Assembly (NCBI GenBank): GCA_039801885.1
Contig: JBDRVN010000002.1
Coordinates: 2,057-66,056, forward strand
Length of the DNA stretch: 64,000 nt
Source of the DNA: a candidate division WOR-3 bacterium
GTDB lineage: Bacteria; Hydrothermota; Tepidihabitantia; Tepidihabitantales; DTDR01
Reading direction: 5' to 3'
Shown: positions 939 through 61,367 of the stretch, piece after piece
Layout: each line of letters opens with the position of its first letter
Position numbering within the stretch: position 1 is the first letter of the stretch
Position numbers and translations under genes: made by a program
The notes under the pieces: generated by a model
What the model was told of the DNA's origin: nothing
The model's input: the letters and a program-made list of their open reading frames with translations, nothing else
Databases searched by the model: none

Positions 939-1742
939 ATGGAAGTATCTCTTGGTTTTTGTCAGTTTGATATCCATTGGGGGGATAAAGAGAAGAATTT
1001 TAAAAAGGTAGAGAAGATTTTTGAGGGGTTAAAAAAAGAGGATAAATCTTTGAAAATAATTGCTTTACCTGAGCTTTTCTCTACTGGCTATCTTTTTTTA
1101 GATAAAAAAGAAATTTCTAAACTATCAGAAAAAGTAGAAGGAGAGACTTATTATTTTTTAAGGGATTTAGCAGAAAATTATAATTCAATAGTCGCTGGCG
1201 GGCTTTTAGAAAAAGAAAATAATAATTTTTATAATTCGGCTTTGATTGTCGCACCTGATGGAAGCTATTTGTTATATAGAAAAATCCATCTTTTCAAAGA
1301 TGAGAAAGATTTATTTGAAAAAGGAGATTTAAAATTAAATGTTTTTAATTATAATAATTTAAAAATTGGAGTTTTAATCTGTTTTGATTATTTTTTCCCA
1401 GAAGCAGCAAGAACATTGGCGATAAAAGGAGCAGAAATTATCTGTCATCCTGCGAATTTGATTTTACCTTATGCTCCTTTGATAACTCAAGTAAGAGCAT
1501 TAGAGAATCGTATATTTTGGATATTAGCGAATAGAATCGGAATAGAAAAAAGGGGAGATAAAGAACTGAAATTTTTAGGGAAAAGTCAAATTATTTCGCC
1601 AAAGGGTGAAATTTTAATAAAAGCAGAAGATGAGGAAACATTAAAACTTGTGGAAGTTAATATTAATGAGGCTAAAGATAAAAAAGTAACCGATAAAAAT
1701 GACCTACTTCTTGATAGAAGAACCGAGTTTTATGAGATTTAA
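939..1742 (+). CDS. Carbon-nitrogen hydrolase (nitrilase superfamily) amidohydrolase
   Basis: 267 aa. The Glu-Lys-Cys catalytic triad is in its usual context (PELF...; RKIHLF; LICFDYFFPE). An N-carbamoylputrescine amidase-like function is possible but cannot be resolved from sequence alone. Confidence 0.8.
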   Translation: MEVSLGFCQFDIHWGDKEKNFKKVEKIFEGLKKEDKSLKIIALPELFSTGYLFLDKKEISKLSEKVEGETYYFLRDLAENYNSIVAGGLLEKENNNFYNSALIVAPDGSYLLYRKIHLFKDEKDLFEKGDLKLNVFNYNNLKIGVLICFDYFFPEAARTLAIKGAEIICHPANLILPYAPLITQVRALENRIFWILANRIGIEKRGDKELKFLGKSQIISPKGEILIKAEDEETLKLVEVNINEAKDKKVTDKNDLLLDRRTEFYEI

Positions 1743-7193: not shown

Positions 7194-7342
7194 ATCTTAA
7201 ATTTAATGAAATTTCTTTTAAAATCAATAAAGTAACTGACTAAGAAAATCTTTGATTTAAAAATGTCAGCGTTTGAATATAATATATTGACATTATTAAA
7301 AATTTTTAGTATATTTAAAGTGATAATTAAAAAGGAGAGAGA

Positions 7343-7576
7343 ATGATGAGGAAAGGCATTATTATCTTTGGTCATTTTTGTATATTATTGGGTTGTTTTT
7401 TGTTTACTTTGGGAATATATCTTTTACCAGCAAATAAACCGACTTTAATTGGAATTTTAACAAAACCATTGTTTGTTGGGTTGGTTTTAATATTTGGTGG
7501 AATCTGTGCCAATGTAAATGCCTGTTGTCGAAGTCTTCAAAAGAAAGAAGATTTAAATATTAATAAAGATAGATAA
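7343..7576 (+). CDS. Small two-TM membrane protein with C-terminal Cys cluster
   Basis: 77 aa. There is a strong SD (aaaggagag) 6 nt upstream. A sigma70-like promoter has ttgaca at about 7289 and tatatt at about 7312. The C-terminus reads CANVNACCRS. Confidence 0.5.
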   Translation: MMRKGIIIFGHFCILLGCFLFTLGIYLLPANKPTLIGILTKPLFVGLVLIFGGICANVNACCRSLQKKEDLNINKDR

Positions 7577-8057
7577 AAAATTAATTGGGTTAAAAAATAT
7601 TTTTGACAACTTTCAATAAATTTTAGATAACATCTATCAATTTACATTATAATTATCTTTTCTGTTTCGCCAAATATCAATCAGTGGATTGATGACCTTA
7701 AAGAGCAGAAAAGAATAGTGATATAGGTAGCTCTCTCTAACAGAACTAATAATGATTTTAAGGGTATTTAGTAGTAATGAAATTAAGAATATGATGAATG
7801 AATAATCTTAAATAATGATTATTGATGATTTTTCTATTTATTGTGTTAATGAATTTTATACTAAGATTGATTTAGGTTGGTATTTTGCCTATTTCCCGAT
7901 TTTCGGTTTTAAAGGTTATATAGTTTTATTTTAATAAGAAGTAATATTTCGCTTATGAGCAGAGTATGAATTTTTTAAGTTTTACTGTTAAAAATTTTTT
8001 CTTAAATCGCTTGACGAATAAAAAAATTTTGTTAAAATTTTACATAAAATGAAGGCC

Positions 8058-8130
8058 GGGGCAGTAGTTCAGTGGGAGAACGCCTCGTTCGCAACGAGGA
8101 GGTCGGCGGTTCAAATCCGCTCTGCTCCAA
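8058..8130 (+). tRNA. tRNA-Ala (anticodon CGC)
   Basis: Cloverleaf read by hand. Acceptor ggggcag pairs with ctgctcc, with the G3:U70 Ala identity pair. The anticodon loop is ttCGCaa. The T-loop is ggttcaaatcc. Confidence 0.8.
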
Positions 8131-8151: not shown

Positions 8152-8694
8152 ATGGTTCCCAAGAGAGTTTTTTTTACTAAGGGTGTTGGTAAACATCGTG
8201 ACCGCCTTTCGTCTTTTGAGGCGGCTTTGCGCGATGCGAGCATTGCCCAGTTTAATATTGTCCAAGTATCAAGTATTTTACCACCAGCTTGTAGAATTAT
8301 TTCTAAGCATCAAGGATTAAGATATGTTGTCCCTGGAGAAATTATTTTTTGTGTAATGAGTAGTAATGCCACTAATGAGCCTCATCGGTTAATTGCTGCT
8401 TCGGTAGGTGTGGCAATCCCACGGGATAAAAATCAGTATGGTTATCTTTCGGAATATCATTCTTTTGGTGAATCAGAAGTAAAGGCAGGAGAATATGCCG
8501 AAGATTTGGCAGCCCAAATGTTGGCAACTACCTTGGGAGTAGAATTTGATCCAAATACCAGTTATGATGAAAGGAAAGAGATTTGGAAGATTTCTGGGAA
8601 AATATATCGGACAATGAATATTACCCAAACAGCAATTGGTGATAAAAATGGGCTTTGGACAACGGTTGTTGCTTGTGCAGTTTTGATACCATGA
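8152..8694 (+). CDS. pdaD: Pyruvoyl-dependent arginine decarboxylase (PdaD family)
   Basis: 180 aa. It has the N-terminal FFTKGVGKH signature and an internal Ser-Ser (VSSILPP) at the expected self-cleavage site. GC content is noticeably higher than in the flanking genes. Confidence 0.8.
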
Positions 8695-9710
8695 AAGAGG
8701 AATTTTTAAAAGAACCAACAAAGCCTTTCGAAGTAAATCCCAATGATTCAGTGTCTGATGTTTTGAAAAAGATGGAAAAGATTTCTTTTCAAGGAAGGAC
8801 ATTGGCGCTGGCGTTAAATGTCTGGGAGAAAATGCTTTCGGACGATGTGATAATCTTTTTAGGTTTAGCCGGTGCAATGATTCCAGCTGGAATGAGGAAG
8901 ATAATTGTCTATTTAATAAAAGAACGGTTGATTGATTGTCTTGTTTCTACCGGTGCCAATCTTTTTCACGATATTCACGAAATAAGGGGAAAATATCATT
9001 ATCTGGGAAACCCTAATGTGGATGATACTTTATTAAGAAAATGTAAGATTGATAGAATTTACGATACCTTTGCTAGTGAAGACGAGTTTATTGATACTGA
9101 TAATTTTATTATTGCCCTTTGTGAAAAATTTGACCAGAAAAGGTTTTATTCTACAAGAGAGTTTTTATATCTTTTAGGTAAAGAATTAACCGAATTTCAA
9201 GAAGAGGGGATTGTGAATACTGCTTATAAATTCAATTTTCCGATTTATTGTCCAGCAATTGGTGATTCTTCCATCGGTATTGCTTTAACGGAGGGCAAAA
9301 GAAAGGGAAAGATTGATATTAAGTTTGATATTATAAAAGATGTTTACGAGACTGCTTATTTAACTTCTTTGAAAAAATCTGGAGTTATATATATTGGTGG
9401 CGGAGTGCCGAAAAATTTTATCCAGCAAACTGAGGTAACTGCTCCTTTCTTGGGATTTAAAACTCACGGTCATTCCTATGCTATTCAATTTACTATGGAT
9501 GCACCTCATTGGGGAGGTCTTTCTGGTTGTACCTTTTCCGAAGCACAATCTTGGGGGAAAATTGCCTTAGATGCCAAGATGGTTACTTGCTATTGTGATG
9601 CGACAATTGCTTTGCCAATAGTTGTTTCTGCCTTGGCACAAAAAAAAATAAAAAGAGAGAAAGTTATTCAATTTAAAGATTTAGATAAAGAGAATTTTAA
9701 GATAATTTAA
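8691..9710 (+). CDS. Deoxyhypusine synthase-like protein (DHS family; possibly homospermidine synthase-like)
   Basis: It aligns by eye with eukaryotic and archaeal DHS: [38 protein letters not shown] and [10 protein letters not shown]. An ATG at 8691 forms an ATGA overlap with the pdaD stop. Confidence 0.8.
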
Positions 9711-9723
9711 AAAGGAGGCAGAT

Positions 9724-10017
9724 ATGGCAATTGTTGATATGAGTGTTGTGCCAATTGGCACTAACACACCTAGTGTTAGTAAGTTTGTAAAAGAAGCGGT
9801 TGAAATTATCAAAAAATCCGGTCTAAAATATCAGGTAAATCCAATGGGAACAACAATTGAAGGCGATTTAGTTAAAATCTTTGATTTGGTAAAAGTAATT
9901 CATCAACATTTCTTCGTTCTTGGTGCCCAAAGAGTATTAACAACTATTAAGATCGACGAGCGAATTGATAAATATCAAACAATGGAAGATAAAGTAAAAA
10001 AAGCCTTAGGTGAATAG
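9724..10017 (+). CDS. MTH1187/YkoF-family small protein (DUF77)
   Basis: 97 aa. It reads MAIVDMSVVPIG...NPMGTTIEGD, which is the ferredoxin-like MTH1187/YkoF signature. SD aaaaggagg lies upstream. Confidence 0.7.
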   Translation: MAIVDMSVVPIGTNTPSVSKFVKEAVEIIKKSGLKYQVNPMGTTIEGDLVKIFDLVKVIHQHFFVLGAQRVLTTIKIDERIDKYQTMEDKVKKALGE

Positions 10018-10025
10018 GAGGATTT

Positions 10026-10313
10026 ATGCCTTCTTTATGGGAAAAAGTAAAAAATTGGCTAGAAGATACTACTAAGCAAGTATTAAAAGAAACCGAAGAT
10101 TTATCAAAAAAAGGAAGAATAAAAATACAGATTAGCTCTTTAAATCGGGAAATCGATAAAAAATTCTCTTACTTGGGCGGTTTAATTTATCAAATGATAA
10201 ATGAGGGTAAAATGAATATCGCTGAAGATGAGAATGTGAGAGAAGTGATAAACGAAATAAAGAGATTAGAAGAAGAATTAAAATTGAAAGAGGAGGAATA
10301 TAAAAAAGTTTAA
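10026..10313 (+). CDS. Hypothetical coiled-coil protein
   Basis: 95 aa, charged and helical. The SD is ggagg. Confidence 0.4.
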   Translation: MPSLWEKVKNWLEDTTKQVLKETEDLSKKGRIKIQISSLNREIDKKFSYLGGLIYQMINEGKMNIAEDENVREVINEIKRLEEELKLKEEEYKKV

Positions 10314-10390
10314 TTAATGAATAAAAAAAGAATATCAAGATTAAAAGAAGAAAAATTTTAATTTTTCTTTATCAAATATATAAAGAAAAA

Positions 10391-11167
10391 TTGTTTAAAA
10401 GGATTATCAATAAAAAAATGAAATCTATGAAGAAAATATTGGTAACTAATGATGATGGTATTCATTCTCCTTCTTTAAATTATCTTTATGAAAAATTAAA
10501 AAATTTAGGAGAGATTTATGTGTGTGCTTCTGATGAAAATCGCTCAGCCGCTAGTCATTCTTTTACTTTAAGAAAACCAATAAAAATTTGTGAGATAAAA
10601 AAGAACTGGTATAGCGTTTCCGGCACCCCAACGGATGCTGTTCTACTTTTTTATCATGCTATTTCTAATAAAAGTGTAGATCTGTTAATTGCCGGAATAA
10701 ATGATAGCCCTAATTTAGGAGAAGATATTTTATATTCGGGAACAGTTGCCTGTGCTTTAGAAGGCACAATTTTGGGGATTAATTCCTTTGCGGTCTCTTT
10801 TGTGGAGAATAATAAGAATTTAGAAATTGCCTTACATTTGATTTATAATCTGGCAAAAAATATCTTGAAATACGGTTTGCCAAAAAAGACCTTTTTAAAT
10901 ATTAATATTCCTAATAAAGAGATAAAAGGAATAAAGATAACGAAATTAGGAAAAAGAATATATAAAGATATGGCTATTCCGGTTAAAAAAGAGAATGATT
11001 TATGTTATATTATCGACGGTGAGATGGATTTTATTAAGAAAAGCGGGACTGATTTTGAGGCAATAGAAAAAGGTTATATCTCTATAACTCCCCTCCATTT
11101 AGATATGACCAATTACCAAGTAATAAAAAAATTGGAAAAAAGATTTAAAAATCTTTTAAAAATTTAA
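10391..11167 (+). CDS. surE: 5'/3'-nucleotidase SurE
   Basis: It has the KKILVTNDDGIHSPSL N-terminal motif. The true start is probably one of the internal Met codons (about 10418-10427). Confidence 0.85.
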   Translation: MFKRIINKKMKSMKKILVTNDDGIHSPSLNYLYEKLKNLGEIYVCASDENRSAASHSFTLRKPIKICEIKKNWYSVSGTPTDAVLLFYHAISNKSVDLLIAGINDSPNLGEDILYSGTVACALEGTILGINSFAVSFVENNKNLEIALHLIYNLAKNILKYGLPKKTFLNINIPNKEIKGIKITKLGKRIYKDMAIPVKKENDLCYIIDGEMDFIKKSGTDFEAIEKGYISITPLHLDMTNYQVIKKLEKRFKNLLKI

Positions 11168-14825: not shown

Positions 14826-15702
14826 AATTTCTTTAGGAATAGATATCGGTGGTACAAATCTTAAAATCGGCTTAGTAAAAAATAATAAAATTATAAAGAA
14901 AGGAATTTTTAAAACTGAAAAAAATTTTGATAATCAAAGATTTGGTGATTATTTAATTAAAATTATGGAGAAGTTTATAAAAGGTTATAAAATAGATAAA
15001 ATTGGTATCGGTATTGCTGGTTATGTTTTTTATGAAAAAGGGATATTAAAATTTTCGCCCAATTTACCGAGATTAAAAAATTTTCCTTTAAAAAAGATTA
15101 TTGAAAAATATTTTCAAGTTGAAACTTCTGTTTTAAATGATGCCGATGCAATGGTAATTGGTGAATATTTTTATCATAATAAAAGATATAAAAACTTGAT
15201 AACAATAACTTTAGGAACCGGTGTGGGTAGTGGAATTATTTTAAATAATAAATTACTTTTTAATAGTGAGTTTGGTCATACGATATTAATTCCTAATGGT
15301 TATTTATGTTCTTGTGGCAAAAAGGGTTGCGTGGAAAGCTATTTAGGAAGTTATGGAATGTTAAGGATAGCAAAAGATTTTTATAAAAAAGAAACAAAAG
15401 ATTTAACACCCCAAAAAATTTATGAGATGGCAAAGAAAAAAGATAAAAAAGCGTTAAAAACAATTGAGAGATATTCTTATTATTTGGCGATTGCTTTAAG
15501 TAATTTAACAAACTTATTTAATCCGGAAATAATTATATTAAATGGCGGAATAAGTAATATGGGAAGTTTATTGTTAAAATTTATAAAACCAATATTAAAA
15601 GAAAATATTTTTTATTTACCAAAAATAAAAATTTCCAATTTAAAAGATATTGCGGGAATTATTGGTGCGGTTAATTTTTTAAGGTTTGGCGGAGGTGGGT
15701 AG
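14803..15702 (+). CDS. ROK-family sugar kinase (glucokinase-like)
   Basis: It has the LGIDIGGTNLKIG ATP-binding motif and the ROK zinc motif CSCGKKGCVESY. The last about 16 nt overlap tRNA-Sec on the opposite strand. Confidence 0.8.
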   Translation: MKRKDQYKISLGIDIGGTNLKIGLVKNNKIIKKGIFKTEKNFDNQRFGDYLIKIMEKFIKGYKIDKIGIGIAGYVFYEKGILKFSPNLPRLKNFPLKKIIEKYFQVETSVLNDADAMVIGEYFYHNKRYKNLITITLGTGVGSGIILNNKLLFNSEFGHTILIPNGYLCSCGKKGCVESYLGSYGMLRIAKDFYKKETKDLTPQKIYEMAKKKDKKALKTIERYSYYLAIALSNLTNLFNPEIIILNGGISNMGSLLLKFIKPILKENIFYLPKIKISNLKDIAGIIGAVNFLRFGGGG

Positions 15703-15781
15703 GAATCGAACCTACCACAAGCCTTTTGGGCTTGCGAGCGGGTTTGAAGCCCGTCAGGCACACCAGCACCCATCCACCTCC
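15687..15781 (-). tRNA. selC: tRNA-Sec (selC), anticodon UCA
   Basis: The minus-strand read is 95 nt. The 8-bp acceptor GGAGGTGG pairs with CCACCTCC. The anticodon loop is CTTCAAA, which is UCA. The long variable arm has a 6-bp stem, caagcc with ggcttg. The T-arm is GGTTCGATTCC. The discriminator is G and a CCA is encoded. The architecture matches E. coli selC. Confidence 0.8.
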
Positions 15782-34543: not shown

Positions 34544-34621
34544 ATATATAAGATAAAATTGCTCTTTGAAAATTTGGGAAGTGTGCCTTGAATGAAAAAT
34601 AGTCCCTTATAATTTTTCGCA

Positions 34622-36183
<1,562 letters not shown>

Positions 36184-36335
36184 TTACGAGTTATCTTTCA
36201 TTCAAGGCACGCTTCTTTTTTTATTTTTTATAAATATTTTTTTCTTTTTATCTCAAAATTAAACCCCACCTTTTAAAAGTCTTTTAAAAAATTATTTTTA
36301 TAAATTGACTTCTTTGGAAATATCTTTTAAAATTA

Positions 36336-50683: not shown

Positions 50684-51302
50684 TTTTTATCCCCTTCAAT
50701 TAAAGAAAGATTTTGAAGAATTTTCTAATCATTTTAAATTTAATGGTTTTAAAGGAATAATTGAGGCGATTCTTTTTGTGAGTAATGAGCCAATTAGTGA
50801 AAAGAGGTTAAGGGAATTTCTTTTAATTTCCGAAAAGGAGATTGAGGAGATAATTTCTTTCCTTAATGAAGAATATGAGAAGAGTAATCGGGCTTTTCGC
50901 ATCCGCAAGATTGCCAAAGGTTATCAATTATTTACCTTACCCGAATATAGCGAATACTTAACTAAATTCTATACTGAGAAGAAAAAGAAAAGATTATCAC
51001 CCGCCGCCTTAGAAGTTTTGGCAATCATTGCCTATCATCAACCAATCACTAAACAGGAGATTGAGAAAATTCGGGGAGTGGATTCAACCTATATTTTAAG
51101 TATCCTTTTAGAAAAAAGACTTATTAAAATTGAAGGCAGGGCAAAAAAGCCCGGTGCGCCCTTTTTGTATGTCTTAACCAAAGAATTTCTTAAATATTTT
51201 GGACTTAATTCCTTTGAAGATTTACCCAAAAAAGAGGAGATCGAAAGTTTTCTTGCTGTTTGTGAAGGATATGGGAGAGATCAGAACTCCCCAGAAAGTT
51301 AA
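50676..51302 (+). CDS. scpB: Segregation and condensation protein B (ScpB)
   Basis: Its tandem winged-helix pattern (IEAILFVSNEPISEKRL...LEVLAIIAYHQPITK) is typical of ScpB. Confidence 0.75.
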   Translation: MNNFYPLQLKKDFEEFSNHFKFNGFKGIIEAILFVSNEPISEKRLREFLLISEKEIEEIISFLNEEYEKSNRAFRIRKIAKGYQLFTLPEYSEYLTKFYTEKKKKRLSPAALEVLAIIAYHQPITKQEIEKIRGVDSTYILSILLEKRLIKIEGRAKKPGAPFLYVLTKEFLKYFGLNSFEDLPKKEEIESFLAVCEGYGRDQNSPES

Positions 51303-51834
51303 AGTAGTGGTTGGCTATATTACTCAGGATGTTAATCTGATAGAAGAAGTAGATAAAATCTTATTACCCTTTTTGGGAGAAGGAGATTTAAAAAGCGAAG
51401 TTATTGATTTTAATTTTACTGCCTATTACAAAGAGGAAATGGGTGAAAATTTAAAAAGGCAATGGGTTTCTTATAAAAATTTAGTTATGCCCGATTTTTT
51501 ACCCGATTTAAAAATCAAGACAAATGAAATTGAAGATAAATTTAAAGAGAATGGAAAAAGAAGGATAAATATTGACCCAGGCATCTTGACATTAAACAAT
51601 TTTATTTTAGCCACCACCAAAAATTATGCCCACCGAATTTATTTGAGAAAGGGAATTTATGCGGAAGTTACTTTGATTTATCAAAATAAGAAATTTAATA
51701 ATCTCCCTTGGACCTATCCTGATTACCAAAAAGATTTTTTTCACAATTTTCTTTTAAAGGTAAGAAAGATTTATATTGAAGATTTGAAAAAAATTTGTTA
51801 TAGTAAAGAAGGAGATGAAGACGAGATTTATTAA
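51271..51834 (+). CDS. Conserved hypothetical protein
   Basis: About 187 aa from the internal Met (MGEIRTPQKVKVVVGY). The upstream part of the ORF overlaps scpB. Confidence 0.4.
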   Translation: MGEIRTPQKVKVVVGYITQDVNLIEEVDKILLPFLGEGDLKSEVIDFNFTAYYKEEMGENLKRQWVSYKNLVMPDFLPDLKIKTNEIEDKFKENGKRRINIDPGILTLNNFILATTKNYAHRIYLRKGIYAEVTLIYQNKKFNNLPWTYPDYQKDFFHNFLLKVRKIYIEDLKKICYSKEGDEDEIY

Positions 51835-52369
51835 AGAAGAACTAACTTTTACCGGCGAACAATTACGTTCTCTCTTTGCTTATGATACTTATAATATCCT
51901 TGGTGATTCTCTTATTGCTTTTATCGGTGCCTGTGATATCTCTTTAAAGGAAGCGGTTGATTTAGAGAGCCAGAAGGTTCGGCGATATTCTTATGTTCCT
52001 AAGATGTTACATTTCTTGGCAGAGCATTTTGAAATGGATGTGGAAAAGGCGATATTAAGAAGTTATTTACTTTTAGATATTGTCAAAGATATTTTAAACG
52101 AAAAGTTAGGCACTCTCCAAATAAAAAGAGTGGGTAACGAACTTTATGATGGCGAGAGTCGGGTAGCTATTTCGATGGCTGCTTCTTCACCGATTTCTTC
52201 TTTGGTTTATGTTGGTATAAATGTTGTTCCTCCTACCGAAACTCCCGCAAAAGGATTGGAGGATTATCAGATCGATATTATGGAATTTGGTAACCTTGTT
52301 TTGGAAAGATACGCAAAAGATTCGGAACGGATAAACCAAATGCGGTATCGGACTCGCTGGGTTGAATAG
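51815..52369 (+). CDS. Conserved hypothetical protein
   Basis: 184 aa. I recognise no family with confidence. Confidence 0.4.
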   Translation: MKTRFIKEELTFTGEQLRSLFAYDTYNILGDSLIAFIGACDISLKEAVDLESQKVRRYSYVPKMLHFLAEHFEMDVEKAILRSYLLLDIVKDILNEKLGTLQIKRVGNELYDGESRVAISMAASSPISSLVYVGINVVPPTETPAKGLEDYQIDIMEFGNLVLERYAKDSERINQMRYRTRWVE

Positions 52370-58098: not shown

Positions 58099-58115
58099 TA
58101 AAAGAAGCGGCGCCT

Positions 58116-61124
<3,009 letters not shown>

Positions 61125-61150
61125 TCCGCTTCTTTTATAAAATTCTTAAC

Positions 61151-61267
<117 letters not shown>

Positions 61268-61367
61268 AGTTTTTGTTTTTTAACCTTAATTAATTTAAAA
61301 TTAAGTAAAATTTTTAAAATTTATAAATCATTGAAAAATAAGAAATTAAATTAATAAAAAAATTTTT

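Follow-up and report, generated by a model that had tools for sequence, protein, structure and literature searches.

A pdaD-speY gene pair in a WOR-3 bacterium probably encodes the first two steps of an agmatine-dependent route to homospermidine

The direct coupling, in a bacterial genome, of a gene for a pyruvoyl-dependent arginine decarboxylase to a homologue of deoxyhypusine synthase (DHS) raises two questions, namely upon what substrate the second enzyme acts and whether the genes are of recent archaeal origin. The locus lies in a window of 64,000 nucleotides (the whole stretch of DNA analysed here) from a WOR-3 bacterium and comprises, all on the forward strand, pdaD (8152..8694; 180 aa; PF01862, E 4e-62), the DHS homologue (8691..9710; 339 aa; PF01916, E 4e-95) and an MTH1187/YkoF-family (Thiamine_BP) gene (9724..10017; 97 aa; PF01910, E 7e-35; TIGR00106). 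These identities and boundaries, proposed in an earlier sequence-only reading, are borne out by the Pfam and NCBIfam matches, and the ATGA overlap described there can be read at positions 8691-8694, where the stop codon of pdaD overlaps the start of the DHS homologue. The latter start codon (ATG 8691) is assigned by alignment with homologues; the program-made list of open reading frames opens this frame upstream, at TTG 8655. From the evidence set out below, we consider it probable that the locus supplies the two opening enzymes of the SpeY route, in which homospermidine is made by way of agmatine.

The decarboxylase passes the family models PF01862 (209 bits; cut-off 22.7), NF009064 (216.8; 207) and TIGR00286 (136.3; 107). 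Its Ser-Ser self-cleavage site, VQVS/SILPP (S40/S41), aligns with the 'ISSIMPP' motif of PDB 2qqd, and alignment with PDB 1n2m and 2qqd shows that the Asn and Glu equivalent to M. jannaschii N47 and E109 are kept. PdaD is predicted from these features to turn arginine into agmatine.

In the DHS homologue, the catalytic residues K290 and E284 align with K329 and E323 of human DHS and with K299 and E293 of CdmS, the Thermus thermophilus enzyme that accepts agmatine as its sole substrate and forms G44G, from which SpeB produces homospermidine (PMC10981699); W288 is also kept. Human D243, H288 and D316 are replaced in the window protein by I197, N242 and L277, states that recur in 80 (Ile), 84 (Asn) and 83 (Leu) of the 85 members of its clade (the window and 84 related loci), and the CdmS equivalents of Asp243 and Asp316 (Phe204 and Leu286) are likewise hydrophobic. 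Similarly, human E136/E137 become F92/H93, as in all SpeY-type references. Residues E130 and D137, each kept in 80 of the 85 clade members, correspond to CdmS Glu136 and Asp143, the pair at the pocket entrance whose binding of the second agmatine is a model only (PMC10981699); the corresponding residues are Asn and Glu in human DHS and in the archaeal DHS 7cmc. CdmS Ser67, for which contact with the guanidino group is modelled and is not a demonstrated requirement (PMC10981699), is Ala62 in the window protein, and alanine is found here in all 85 clade members as well as in the Cylindrospermum SpeY. Furthermore, an insertion of ca. 9 aa that follows PKNFIQQ in the window protein is common to SpeY-type proteins only.

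A neighbour-joining tree (200 bootstraps; a distance method only), in which the sequences of CdmS, Cylindrospermum SpeY and human and Arabidopsis DHS are those reconstructed from Supplementary Fig. 1 of PMC10981699, places the window protein in a clade of 100% bootstrap together with CdmS, the ODC-linked SpeY of Sphingomonas, the SpeY-like protein of Trichormus and the SpeY of Cylindrospermum, to the exclusion of human and Arabidopsis DHS and of two solved archaeal DHS proteins. The clade of the window protein is sister to the Cylindrospermum SpeY (75% bootstrap), and characterised enzymes of the pathway therefore flank it on both sides, with the window protein being 37% identical to CdmS and 35% identical to the Cylindrospermum SpeY. 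The WOR-3 proteins and one unclassified MAG (L011) form a 91%-bootstrap group beside Zixibacteria and Ignavibacteria.

The gene neighbourhoods point in the same direction. As counted with tBLASTn across the 85 clade loci, the gene adjacent to the DHS homologue encodes PdaD in 48, a SpeB-like ureohydrolase in 31 and SpeA in 3, with any other recurrent neighbour confined to at most 8; this neighbouring ureohydrolase scores 247 with the agmatinase model TIGR01230, above the cut-off of 174. The earlier view of pdaD and the DHS homologue as a coupled polyamine module is thus supported both by the ATGA overlap and by this recurrent adjacency. As judged from its clade, its active-site states and its neighbours, the DHS homologue is a SpeY-type enzyme.

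The family models taken by themselves would suggest a true DHS, which would take spermidine or agmatine as the donor for modifying a translation factor (EF-P or another protein). The window protein passes two NCBIfam 'deoxyhypusine synthase' models by a narrow margin (NF002006, 439.4 against a cut-off of 434; TIGR00321, 305.4 against 304.25), the catalytic lysine and the NAD-site residues are conserved, and bacterial DHS homologues have, according to a 2026 review (PMC12856214), been neither tied to nor excluded from EF-P activation by experiment. NF002006 is centred on Methanosarcinaceae homologues (Methanolobus, 569), which themselves have SpeY-state residues; one SpeY model is failed by the window protein (266 against a cut-off of 500, with Trichormus at 592 and Sphingomonas at 564), this model spanning a single sub-clade. 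Such a protein-modifying role is nevertheless very unlikely given the SpeY-like replacement of D243, D316 and H288, the fully supported membership of the SpeY clade, and neighbours that are small-molecule enzymes (arginine decarboxylase and ureohydrolase), while no EF-P gene is found in the window or within 10 kb of the 84 related loci. In addition, G44G is made by all SpeY proteins assayed, among them that of Caldilinea aerophila and others from diverse phyla, and not by human or plant DHS (PMC13625781). NCBI currently names the window protein 'deoxyhypusine synthase'.

The suggestion of the sequence-only reading that some bacterial DHS homologues of this kind make homospermidine is right, and the role of this enzyme class, which the same reading took to be settled only in part, has meanwhile been resolved (PMC10981699; PMC13625781). 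The reaction need not follow the plant model, that is, a homospermidine synthase of the plant/eukaryotic kind that moves an aminobutyl group from spermidine (or putrescine) to putrescine, as the sequence-only reading had suggested and as eukaryotic DHS and plant HSS are able to do with putrescine as acceptor (PMC13625781). CdmS uses neither putrescine nor spermidine (PMC10981699), the acidic residues that hold the amino groups of spermidine are lost in the window protein, the gene is translationally coupled to that of an agmatine-producing enzyme, and genes for agmatinase, ODC and spermidine synthase were not found in the window; a plant-like reaction accordingly has little to recommend it and we regard it as highly improbable.

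For the agmatine-dependent route, the enzymatic products that we infer would arise as follows. PdaD would cleave itself to generate its pyruvoyl cofactor and would then decarboxylate arginine to agmatine. The translationally coupled SpeY-type enzyme would oxidise one agmatine with bound NAD, carry the resulting 4-guanidinobutyl group on K290 and pass it on to a second agmatine at its amino group, so that N1,N9-bis(guanidino)homospermidine (diagmatine, G44G, caldomycin) is formed; the enzyme is accordingly predicted to be an agmatine homocoupling enzyme (diagmatine/G44G/caldomycin synthase). A ureohydrolase, or an iminohydrolase together with an amidohydrolase, presumably encoded elsewhere in the genome and not linked to the locus, would strip off the two guanidino groups to yield homospermidine.

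Transcription of the pair would start from a promoter upstream of a tRNA gene, with the genes behind the pair carried along as unrelated passengers. The tRNA-Ala gene (anticodon CGC; 8058..8129, forward strand; ARAGORN, and Rfam RF00005 at 69.3 bits), which was absent from the list of the sequence-only reading, is separated from the pdaD start codon by 22 nt, and in each of the five WOR-3 loci (the window, L001, L003, L007 and L012) a tRNA-Ala(CGC) gene precedes pdaD by 6-35 nt. A consensus scan finds a promoter-like site (8011..8038, forward strand) some 20 nt ahead of the tRNA gene. The site consists of TTGACG, a 16-nt spacer and a TG-extended TAAAAT and has 10 of 12 consensus matches plus the TG extension, a quality that is no commoner here than in shuffled sequence, and its sequence is identical in the alignment with L001, whose DHS homologue is 84% identical. 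It is the only plausible candidate promoter for the tRNA gene and the genes behind it, and an Rfam E-value scan of the 860-nt upstream spacer returned nothing besides the tRNA-Ala. Because there is no room for a promoter between them, we infer that one transcript probably carries the tRNA, as a 5' leader, together with pdaD and the DHS homologue.

The MTH1187 gene, separated from the DHS homologue by 13 nt, is preceded by a GGAGG ribosome-binding site of its own and scores 113 against the TIGR00106 cut-off of 54.7. It is probably co-transcribed with the DHS homologue, and the sequence-only reading had considered it a possible accessory of the pathway; serving as a ligand-binding or regulatory subunit would be one such function. 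Its position on the same strand at such a short distance, the lack of an intervening terminator and the retention of the arrangement in the 84% relative are in keeping with such a role. However, MTH1187 adjoins the DHS homologue in only 2 of the 85 loci, the window and that same relative; neither the flanks of the other three WOR-3 loci nor any of the three-gene clusters contain it, which leaves an accessory function with very little likelihood. None of the papers found that mention MTH1187 deals with its function. Nothing in the comparison links the gene to the pathway, and it appears to be an unrelated downstream passenger. Eight nucleotides beyond it lies a Lys/Glu-rich ORF of 95 aa (10026..10313, forward strand) that has no Pfam or NCBIfam match and is conserved in L001 only (81% identity); this is probably another passenger of the operon.

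Two further genes, 6-7 kb upstream, had been brought into the pathway by the sequence-only reading, and neither assignment survives comparison with the family models. The CN-hydrolase at 939-1742 scores 126 against the AguB model TIGR03381 (cut-off 410), its best model being that of an archaeal-type nitrilase (276; cut-off 500). The OTCase-family gene at 1704-2633 likewise fails the putrescine carbamoyltransferase model TIGR04384 (299; cut-off 500) and passes the ornithine carbamoyltransferase models NF001986 (400.8; 306) and TIGR00658 (378.6; 280.85); on the strength of these matches it is ArgF.

With respect to the origin of the genes, the sequence-only reading had described all three as clearly elevated in GC and as archaeal in type, and had suggested horizontal acquisition. 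The elevation holds mainly for pdaD, which at 39.6% ranks first of the 53 window genes (mean 30.4%, sd 3.7; z 2.5), and less for the DHS homologue (34.0%, rank 7, z 1.0) and the MTH1187 gene (33.0%, rank 13, z 0.7), and the 0.40 peak of the 500-nt GC profile also spans the tRNA-Ala gene, which is itself 61% GC. At third codon positions, the GC contents of pdaD, the DHS homologue and the MTH1187 gene (0.271, 0.276 and 0.245; z 0.7, 0.9 and 0.0) are close to the window mean of 0.244, and their synonymous codon usage, assessed as a synonymous-codon likelihood, is typical of the window. In fact, when the GC content of each gene is calculated from the amino-acid composition of its protein and the window's own synonymous codon usage, the expected values (39.0, 33.5 and 33.6%) are within 0.6 points of those observed (residual z 0.5, 0.4 and -0.5). 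The excess GC thus resides at codon positions 1 and 2 and derives from protein composition; it is no foreign nucleotide signature.

Nor do the affinities of the proteins fit an archaeal type, with the DHS homologue placed inside the bacterial SpeY radiation and PdaD matching the Methanocaldococcus enzyme weakly (38.5 bits, E 9e-9). A recently acquired archaeal island, possibly inserted beside the tRNA gene, would account for the top rank of pdaD in GC, for the adjoining tRNA, for families that are common in archaea and for Methanosarcinaceae homologues that are 52-57% identical. Yet the nucleotide composition is as described above, the tRNA-pdaD-DHS unit is kept across five WOR-3 loci whose DHS proteins are 63-84% identical and whose flanking genes differ, 20 kb of synteny with the window is retained in the closest relative (L001), the WOR-3 proteins group with related bacterial phyla, and the Methanosarcinaceae sequences are themselves nested among bacterial ones, with weak support in the bootstrapped tree; such an island is extremely improbable. 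Ordinary GC and codon usage, and trees that place the genes within the host lineage, were the two outcomes that the sequence-only reading had itself named as speaking against its proposal; both were found, and recent horizontal acquisition is therefore not supported. The pdaD-DHS pair has long been part of WOR-3, where it is inherited vertically, and is no recent archaeal import. The whole bacterial SpeY family is regarded in the literature as being of ancient archaeal origin, which is nothing specific to this genome.

The step that the locus does not account for is the hydrolysis of G44G. The 64-kb window contains no arginase-fold gene, and neither do the 8-10 kb on either side of the module in the four other WOR-3 loci; tBLASTn with E. 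coli SpeB gives no match in the window or the WOR-3 flanks. A profile of the SpeY-linked ureohydrolase, run against six-frame translations, gives a best match of E 2.5 (positive control, 3e-119), and among the 120 matches listed for the same profile in a collection of 5.8 billion proteins (Zixibacteria and similar) there is no WOR-3-named protein and none from the 701-kb or 539-kb WOR-3 contigs. A deiminase family is likewise absent from the Pfam matches of the scanned ORFs, which are most of those in the window; the larger ORFs outside that scan include topoisomerase, BamA-like and TamB-like proteins. The two-gene pdaD-DHS form is also found in many Terriglobia loci, and pdaD-speY-speB is retained in Zixibacteria, Ignavibacteria, Gemmatimonadota and Latescibacterota.

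One explanation would be that diagmatine, or the half-hydrolysed N1-aminobutylagmatine, is itself the end product in WOR-3, the hydrolase having been lost or never present and the two-gene module forming the complete pathway. The consistent lack of a linked ureohydrolase in all five WOR-3 loci, the similar two-gene Terriglobia set beside phyla that keep the third gene, and the profile matches, none of which is attributable to WOR-3 among those listed, would agree with this. On the other hand, absence from 64 kb carries little weight for a much larger genome, hydrolysis of G44G is within the capacity of any SpeB homologue (PMC13625781), and in Thermus rapid hydrolysis keeps G44G below detection in vivo (PMC10981699). 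Taken together, we regard diagmatine or its half-hydrolysed form as an unlikely end product. The fuller proposal, in which WOR-3 and many Terriglobia combine a tRNA-led pdaD-speY pair with a genome devoid of any G44G hydrolase and use diagmatine rather than homospermidine as their working polycation, is a little more doubtful again. We know of no organism in which G44G accumulates as an end product, and if the proposal were true these would be the first organisms known to use this intermediate in that way.

Compared with the systems already described, the locus that we assign to the SpeY route combines familiar elements. T. thermophilus CdmS (TTHA1570) has the same DHS fold, NAD dependence and catalytic Lys and Glu as the window protein, and has in common with it the loss of the Asp243, Asp316 and His288 equivalents, the Glu/Asp pair proposed for the second agmatine and the SpeY insertion; the two differ at the D243 position (Phe in CdmS, Ile here) and at Ser67 (Ala here), and CdmS belongs to a different sub-clade, in which it groups with the NF002699 family. 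The arginine decarboxylases also differ, that of Thermus being the PLP-dependent SpeA and that of the window the pyruvoyl PdaD. The cluster of Caldilinea aerophila (PMC13625781), compared by its described layout, contains the same pairing of an archaeal-type pyruvoyl ADC with SpeY, together with SpeB, a diagmatine ureohydrolase; this linked ureohydrolase is missing from the window and from all WOR-3 loci, and the three-gene layout is found in 31 of the 85 loci of the window's clade.

Among cyanobacterial SpeY proteins, that of Cylindrospermum has in common with the window protein the STGAN-x-HD motif, the Asn at H288 and the Leu at D316, but has Met at the D243 position, where the window protein has Ile, and a longer C-terminus. 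The SpeY of Anabaena PCC 7120 is reported to be genetically required for homospermidine synthesis (cited in PMC13625781). Canonical DHS (eukaryotic, and archaeal in PDB 7cmc and 8put) belongs to the same Pfam family and has the fold, NAD site and catalytic lysine of the window protein, which nonetheless lies outside the DHS clades, is without the spermidine-site residues and has no linked EF-P. The substrate of canonical DHS is eIF5A/aIF5A, and the window organism, a bacterium by the rRNA genes that the window carries, is taken to be without such a substrate. Bacterial HSS, for example that of Blastochloris viridis (PDB 4TVB), resembles the route proposed here in its homospermidine end product and its use of NAD, but its fold is non-homologous to that of the window protein and its reaction is putrescine-dependent and does not involve G44G (PMC13625781).

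The clade of the window protein spans WOR-3, Acidobacteriota, Zixibacteria, Ignavibacteria, Gemmatimonadota, MAGs labelled as Deltaproteobacteria and Dehalococcoidia. By residues, phylogeny and neighbours, this large, phylum-spanning clade belongs to the SpeY pathway of agmatine coupling that was described in 2024-2026, and the practical value of this assignment is one of annotation, in that its members are still named 'deoxyhypusine synthase' in public databases. The two-gene form, which is without a linked hydrolase, conflicts with the suggestion that speY travels with its hydrolase (PMC13625781), and the Methanosarcinaceae homologues with SpeY-state residues bear on the question, raised in the same work, of whether agmatine-dependent DHS-like enzymes exist in archaea. 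The SpeY-type route is already described, and the WOR-3 locus adds ordinary, vertically inherited genes for it. For WOR-3, a group that to our knowledge has no cultured members, these genes predict a putrescine-independent route from arginine to homospermidine.

The window carries bacterial 16S, 23S and 5S rRNA genes and is therefore of bacterial origin, with an overall GC content of 31.6%. Its rRNA operon is unlinked, with ca. 22 kb of protein-coding genes separating the 16S gene (34618-36184) from the 23S and 5S genes (58114-61268) on the same strand. The block of interest lies on the forward strand and comprises a promoter-like site (8011-8038), a tRNA-Ala(CGC) gene (8058-8129), pdaD (8152-8694), a deoxyhypusine synthase (DHS) homologue (8691-9710) and an MTH1187/Thiamine_BP gene (9724-10017), followed on the same strand by a 95-aa ORF without a family match (10026-10313), surE and an MscS-like gene. 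The gene calls of the sequence-only reading are correct for all three central genes, and the ATGA overlap that it described, between the pdaD TGA and the ATG of the DHS homologue, is present; antisense ORFs within the block (e.g. 8473-8877) are without support. Elsewhere, adjacent, overlapping genes of two function-unknown families, DUF4416 (211 aa) and DUF366 (184 aa, 37.5% GC), occupy 51199-52369.

The Thermus thermophilus DHS homologue CdmS accepts agmatine only (Kobayashi et al., 2024; PMC10981699), and diagmatine (G44G) was made by each of the tested SpeY homologues, which come from diverse phyla and are paired with arginine decarboxylases belonging to three folds, but not by human DHS, plant DHS or bacterial HSS; the hydrolases linked to SpeY are G44G-specific, and one tested cluster, from Caldilinea aerophila, combines a pyruvoyl arginine decarboxylase with SpeY and SpeB (Li et al., 2026; PMC13625781). 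The window protein was compared with these enzymes in a bootstrapped neighbor-joining tree that included the sequences of CdmS, human and Arabidopsis DHS and Cylindrospermum SpeY, rebuilt from a supplementary alignment (PMC10981699), together with a Trichormus homologue and a Sphingomonas SpeY whose neighbour, as for the tested Rhizorhabdus enzyme, is an ODC-type decarboxylase. Every SpeY-type protein, the window's clade included, falls into one group (100% bootstrap) that leaves out the eukaryotic DHS and two solved archaeal DHS proteins. Within it, CdmS, the Sphingomonas protein and the Trichormus protein cluster together (100%), and the Cylindrospermum SpeY is the sister of the window's clade (75%).

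Residue mapping is concordant with the tree. The window protein differs from human DHS at D243, H288 and D316, where it has I197, N242 and L277, and F92/H93 stand at human E136/E137; E130 and D137 match E136 and D143 of CdmS, K290, E284 and W288 are kept, and an insertion of about nine residues after PKNFIQQ is common to SpeY-type proteins only. The sole mismatch is Ser67 of CdmS, replaced by Ala as it also is in the Cylindrospermum SpeY. NCBIfam still labels the window's clade 'deoxyhypusine synthase': on that model (NF002006) the window protein, at 439.4, is above the cut-off of 434, which the Zixibacteria and Dehalococcoidia members do not reach, and it scores 266 on the G44G-synthase model (cut-off 500), which spans the CdmS/cyanobacterial-plasmid/sphingomonad sub-clade only.

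A single scan of GTDB species genomes returned 80 related loci; the window and four others bring the total to 85. The 80 span Acidobacteriota, Zixibacteria, Ignavibacteria, Gemmatimonadota, Latescibacterota, Krumholzibacteriota, TA06 and others, as well as Deltaproteobacteria-labelled MAGs, Dehalococcoidia, Nitrospinae and two Methanosarcinaceae. By tBLASTn, PdaD adjoins the DHS homologue in 48 of the 85 loci, a SpeB-like ureohydrolase in 31 (arranged pdaD-speY-speB, speY-speB-pdaD or pdaD-speB-speY), SpeA in three and MTH1187 in two; unbiased neighbour clustering found no further family in more than eight loci, and no EF-P gene was found near any related locus. Given the recurrence of PdaD and the ureohydrolase, which scores above the agmatinase model cut-off, the conserved functional unit is arginine decarboxylase, SpeY and ureohydrolase, i.e. 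the published pathway. In Bryobacterales (L063-L067, L070, L071, L073, L075, L076, L079, L083 and L086) the pathway genes show a third layout: the SpeY-type gene stands alone, with PdaD, SpeA and SpeB all absent within 10 kb.

The Methanosarcinaceae homologues (L077, a MAG, 10001-10951; L090, Methanolobus psychrotolerans, 9986-11020) are 52-57% identical to the window protein and are placed among bacterial sequences in the bootstrapped tree. L090, the one of the two covered by the residue comparison, shows the SpeY-state Ile, Asn and Leu and the insertion, and has the top score on NF002006; the pair bears on whether archaea own agmatine-dependent DHS-like enzymes. Both loci encode, two genes from the SpeY-type gene (L090 8161-8952, minus strand; L077 ca. 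1.8 kb upstream), a CN-hydrolase 28-31% identical to that of the window (939-1742), which lies 7.7 kb upstream of its SpeY-type gene. This proximity is probably coincidence, since the gene is found in only four of the 85 loci with no deiminase nearby. The tentative assignments of the upstream genes in the sequence-only reading do not hold, the CN-hydrolase not being N-carbamoylputrescine amidase (AguB) and the OTCase-family gene, read as possibly putrescine-carbamoyltransferase-like, being ArgF; the window ORFs scanned with Pfam (most were covered) included neither an agmatine deiminase nor an EF-P gene. MTH1187 had been proposed as a possible pathway accessory. It is probably co-transcribed with the module, judging from the 13-nt gap after the DHS homologue and the absence of a terminator between them, and has its own ribosome-binding site, but its tie to the module does not extend beyond the window's immediate relatives.

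On this comparative evidence, PdaD would convert arginine to agmatine and the SpeY-type enzyme would convert agmatine to diagmatine, and we consider it likely that the pair makes G44G from arginine; homospermidine, which would follow, is probably the end product, with somewhat less assurance. WOR-3 loci, like many Terriglobia loci, contain pdaD and speY only, and no arginase-fold gene was found either in the 64 kb of the window or in the 8-10 kb flanking the module at the other WOR-3 loci, as would be expected were diagmatine itself the end product in WOR-3. In a database profile search for such a gene, none of the 120 top matches listed was named WOR-3. However, any SpeB homologue hydrolyses G44G (PMC13625781), so that the simplest reading is a G44G hydrolase encoded at an unlinked site, and diagmatine as end product seems quite improbable.

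The block had also been read as probably horizontally acquired on account of elevated GC in all three genes and the archaeal affinities of their families. GC is indeed elevated in pdaD (39.6%, z 2.5, the highest among 53 protein-coding genes), but values for the DHS homologue (34.0%, rank 7) and for MTH1187 (33.0%, rank 13) lie inside the normal spread. A sliding-window GC peak is present, to which the tRNA gene (61% GC) contributes in part. For each protein, the GC expected after back-translation with synonymous codon frequencies taken from the remaining 52 genes (39.0, 33.5 and 33.6%, respectively) was at most 0.6 points from that observed (r = 0.94 between expected and observed GC over all genes). 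The raised GC thus reflects the amino-acid composition of conserved enzymes in an AT-rich genome and is no sign of foreign DNA. GC3 (0.271, 0.276 and 0.245; window mean 0.244, sd 0.036) and codon usage are normal, and trees place the WOR-3 proteins together, these being the two results that the sequence-only reading had itself named as contrary to acquisition; its evolutionary story was over-read, though its gene calls were right. The WOR-3 proteins and one unclassified MAG form one group (91% bootstrap), with Zixibacteria and Ignavibacteria as closest neighbours in the full tree, and the sequences that best match the DHS homologue carry the name 'candidate division WOR-3 bacterium' (91% and 67% identity, and also locus L012). 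The window PdaD is 78-94% identical to other WOR-3 PdaD and 51-75% to that of other bacterial loci; its match to the Methanocaldococcus enzyme of solved structure is weak (38.5 bits, E 9e-9). An 84%-identical relative (L001, 701-kb contig) retains ca. 20 kb of synteny around the block, including CN-hydrolase, OTCase, tsaD, HIT, HAD, MTH1187 and surE, and in three remoter WOR-3 loci (DHS 63-67% identical) pdaD still adjoins the DHS homologue within wholly different flanks. A tRNA-Sec (anticodon TCA; 15687-15781, minus strand), also kept in L001 (17201-17295), implies selenoprotein synthesis in the lineage.

Each of the five WOR-3 loci has a tRNA-Ala(CGC) 6-35 nt 5' of the pdaD ATG (L001 9376-9449; L003 9376-9450; L007 7418-7490; L012 9311-9385), while the genes further upstream differ. 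As this gap has no space for a separate promoter, the pdaD-DHS transcript probably carries the tRNA as its 5' leader, and the recurrence of the tRNA suggests that a tRNA-mRNA co-transcript is conserved across WOR-3. Between HIT and the tRNA, the window has a spacer of ca. 860 nt (7194-8057), versus ca. 85 nt in L001; the additional DNA is very AT-rich, with ca. 480 nt free of ORFs and one ORF (7343-7576) encoding a hydrophobic 77-aa product without a family match, and an Rfam scan of the spacer returned no match. The locus adds a new, phylum-level member to the known SpeY pathway (agmatine to diagmatine to homospermidine), and its residual value lies in the correction of database names, a two-gene form without the hydrolase, and a conserved tRNA leader.
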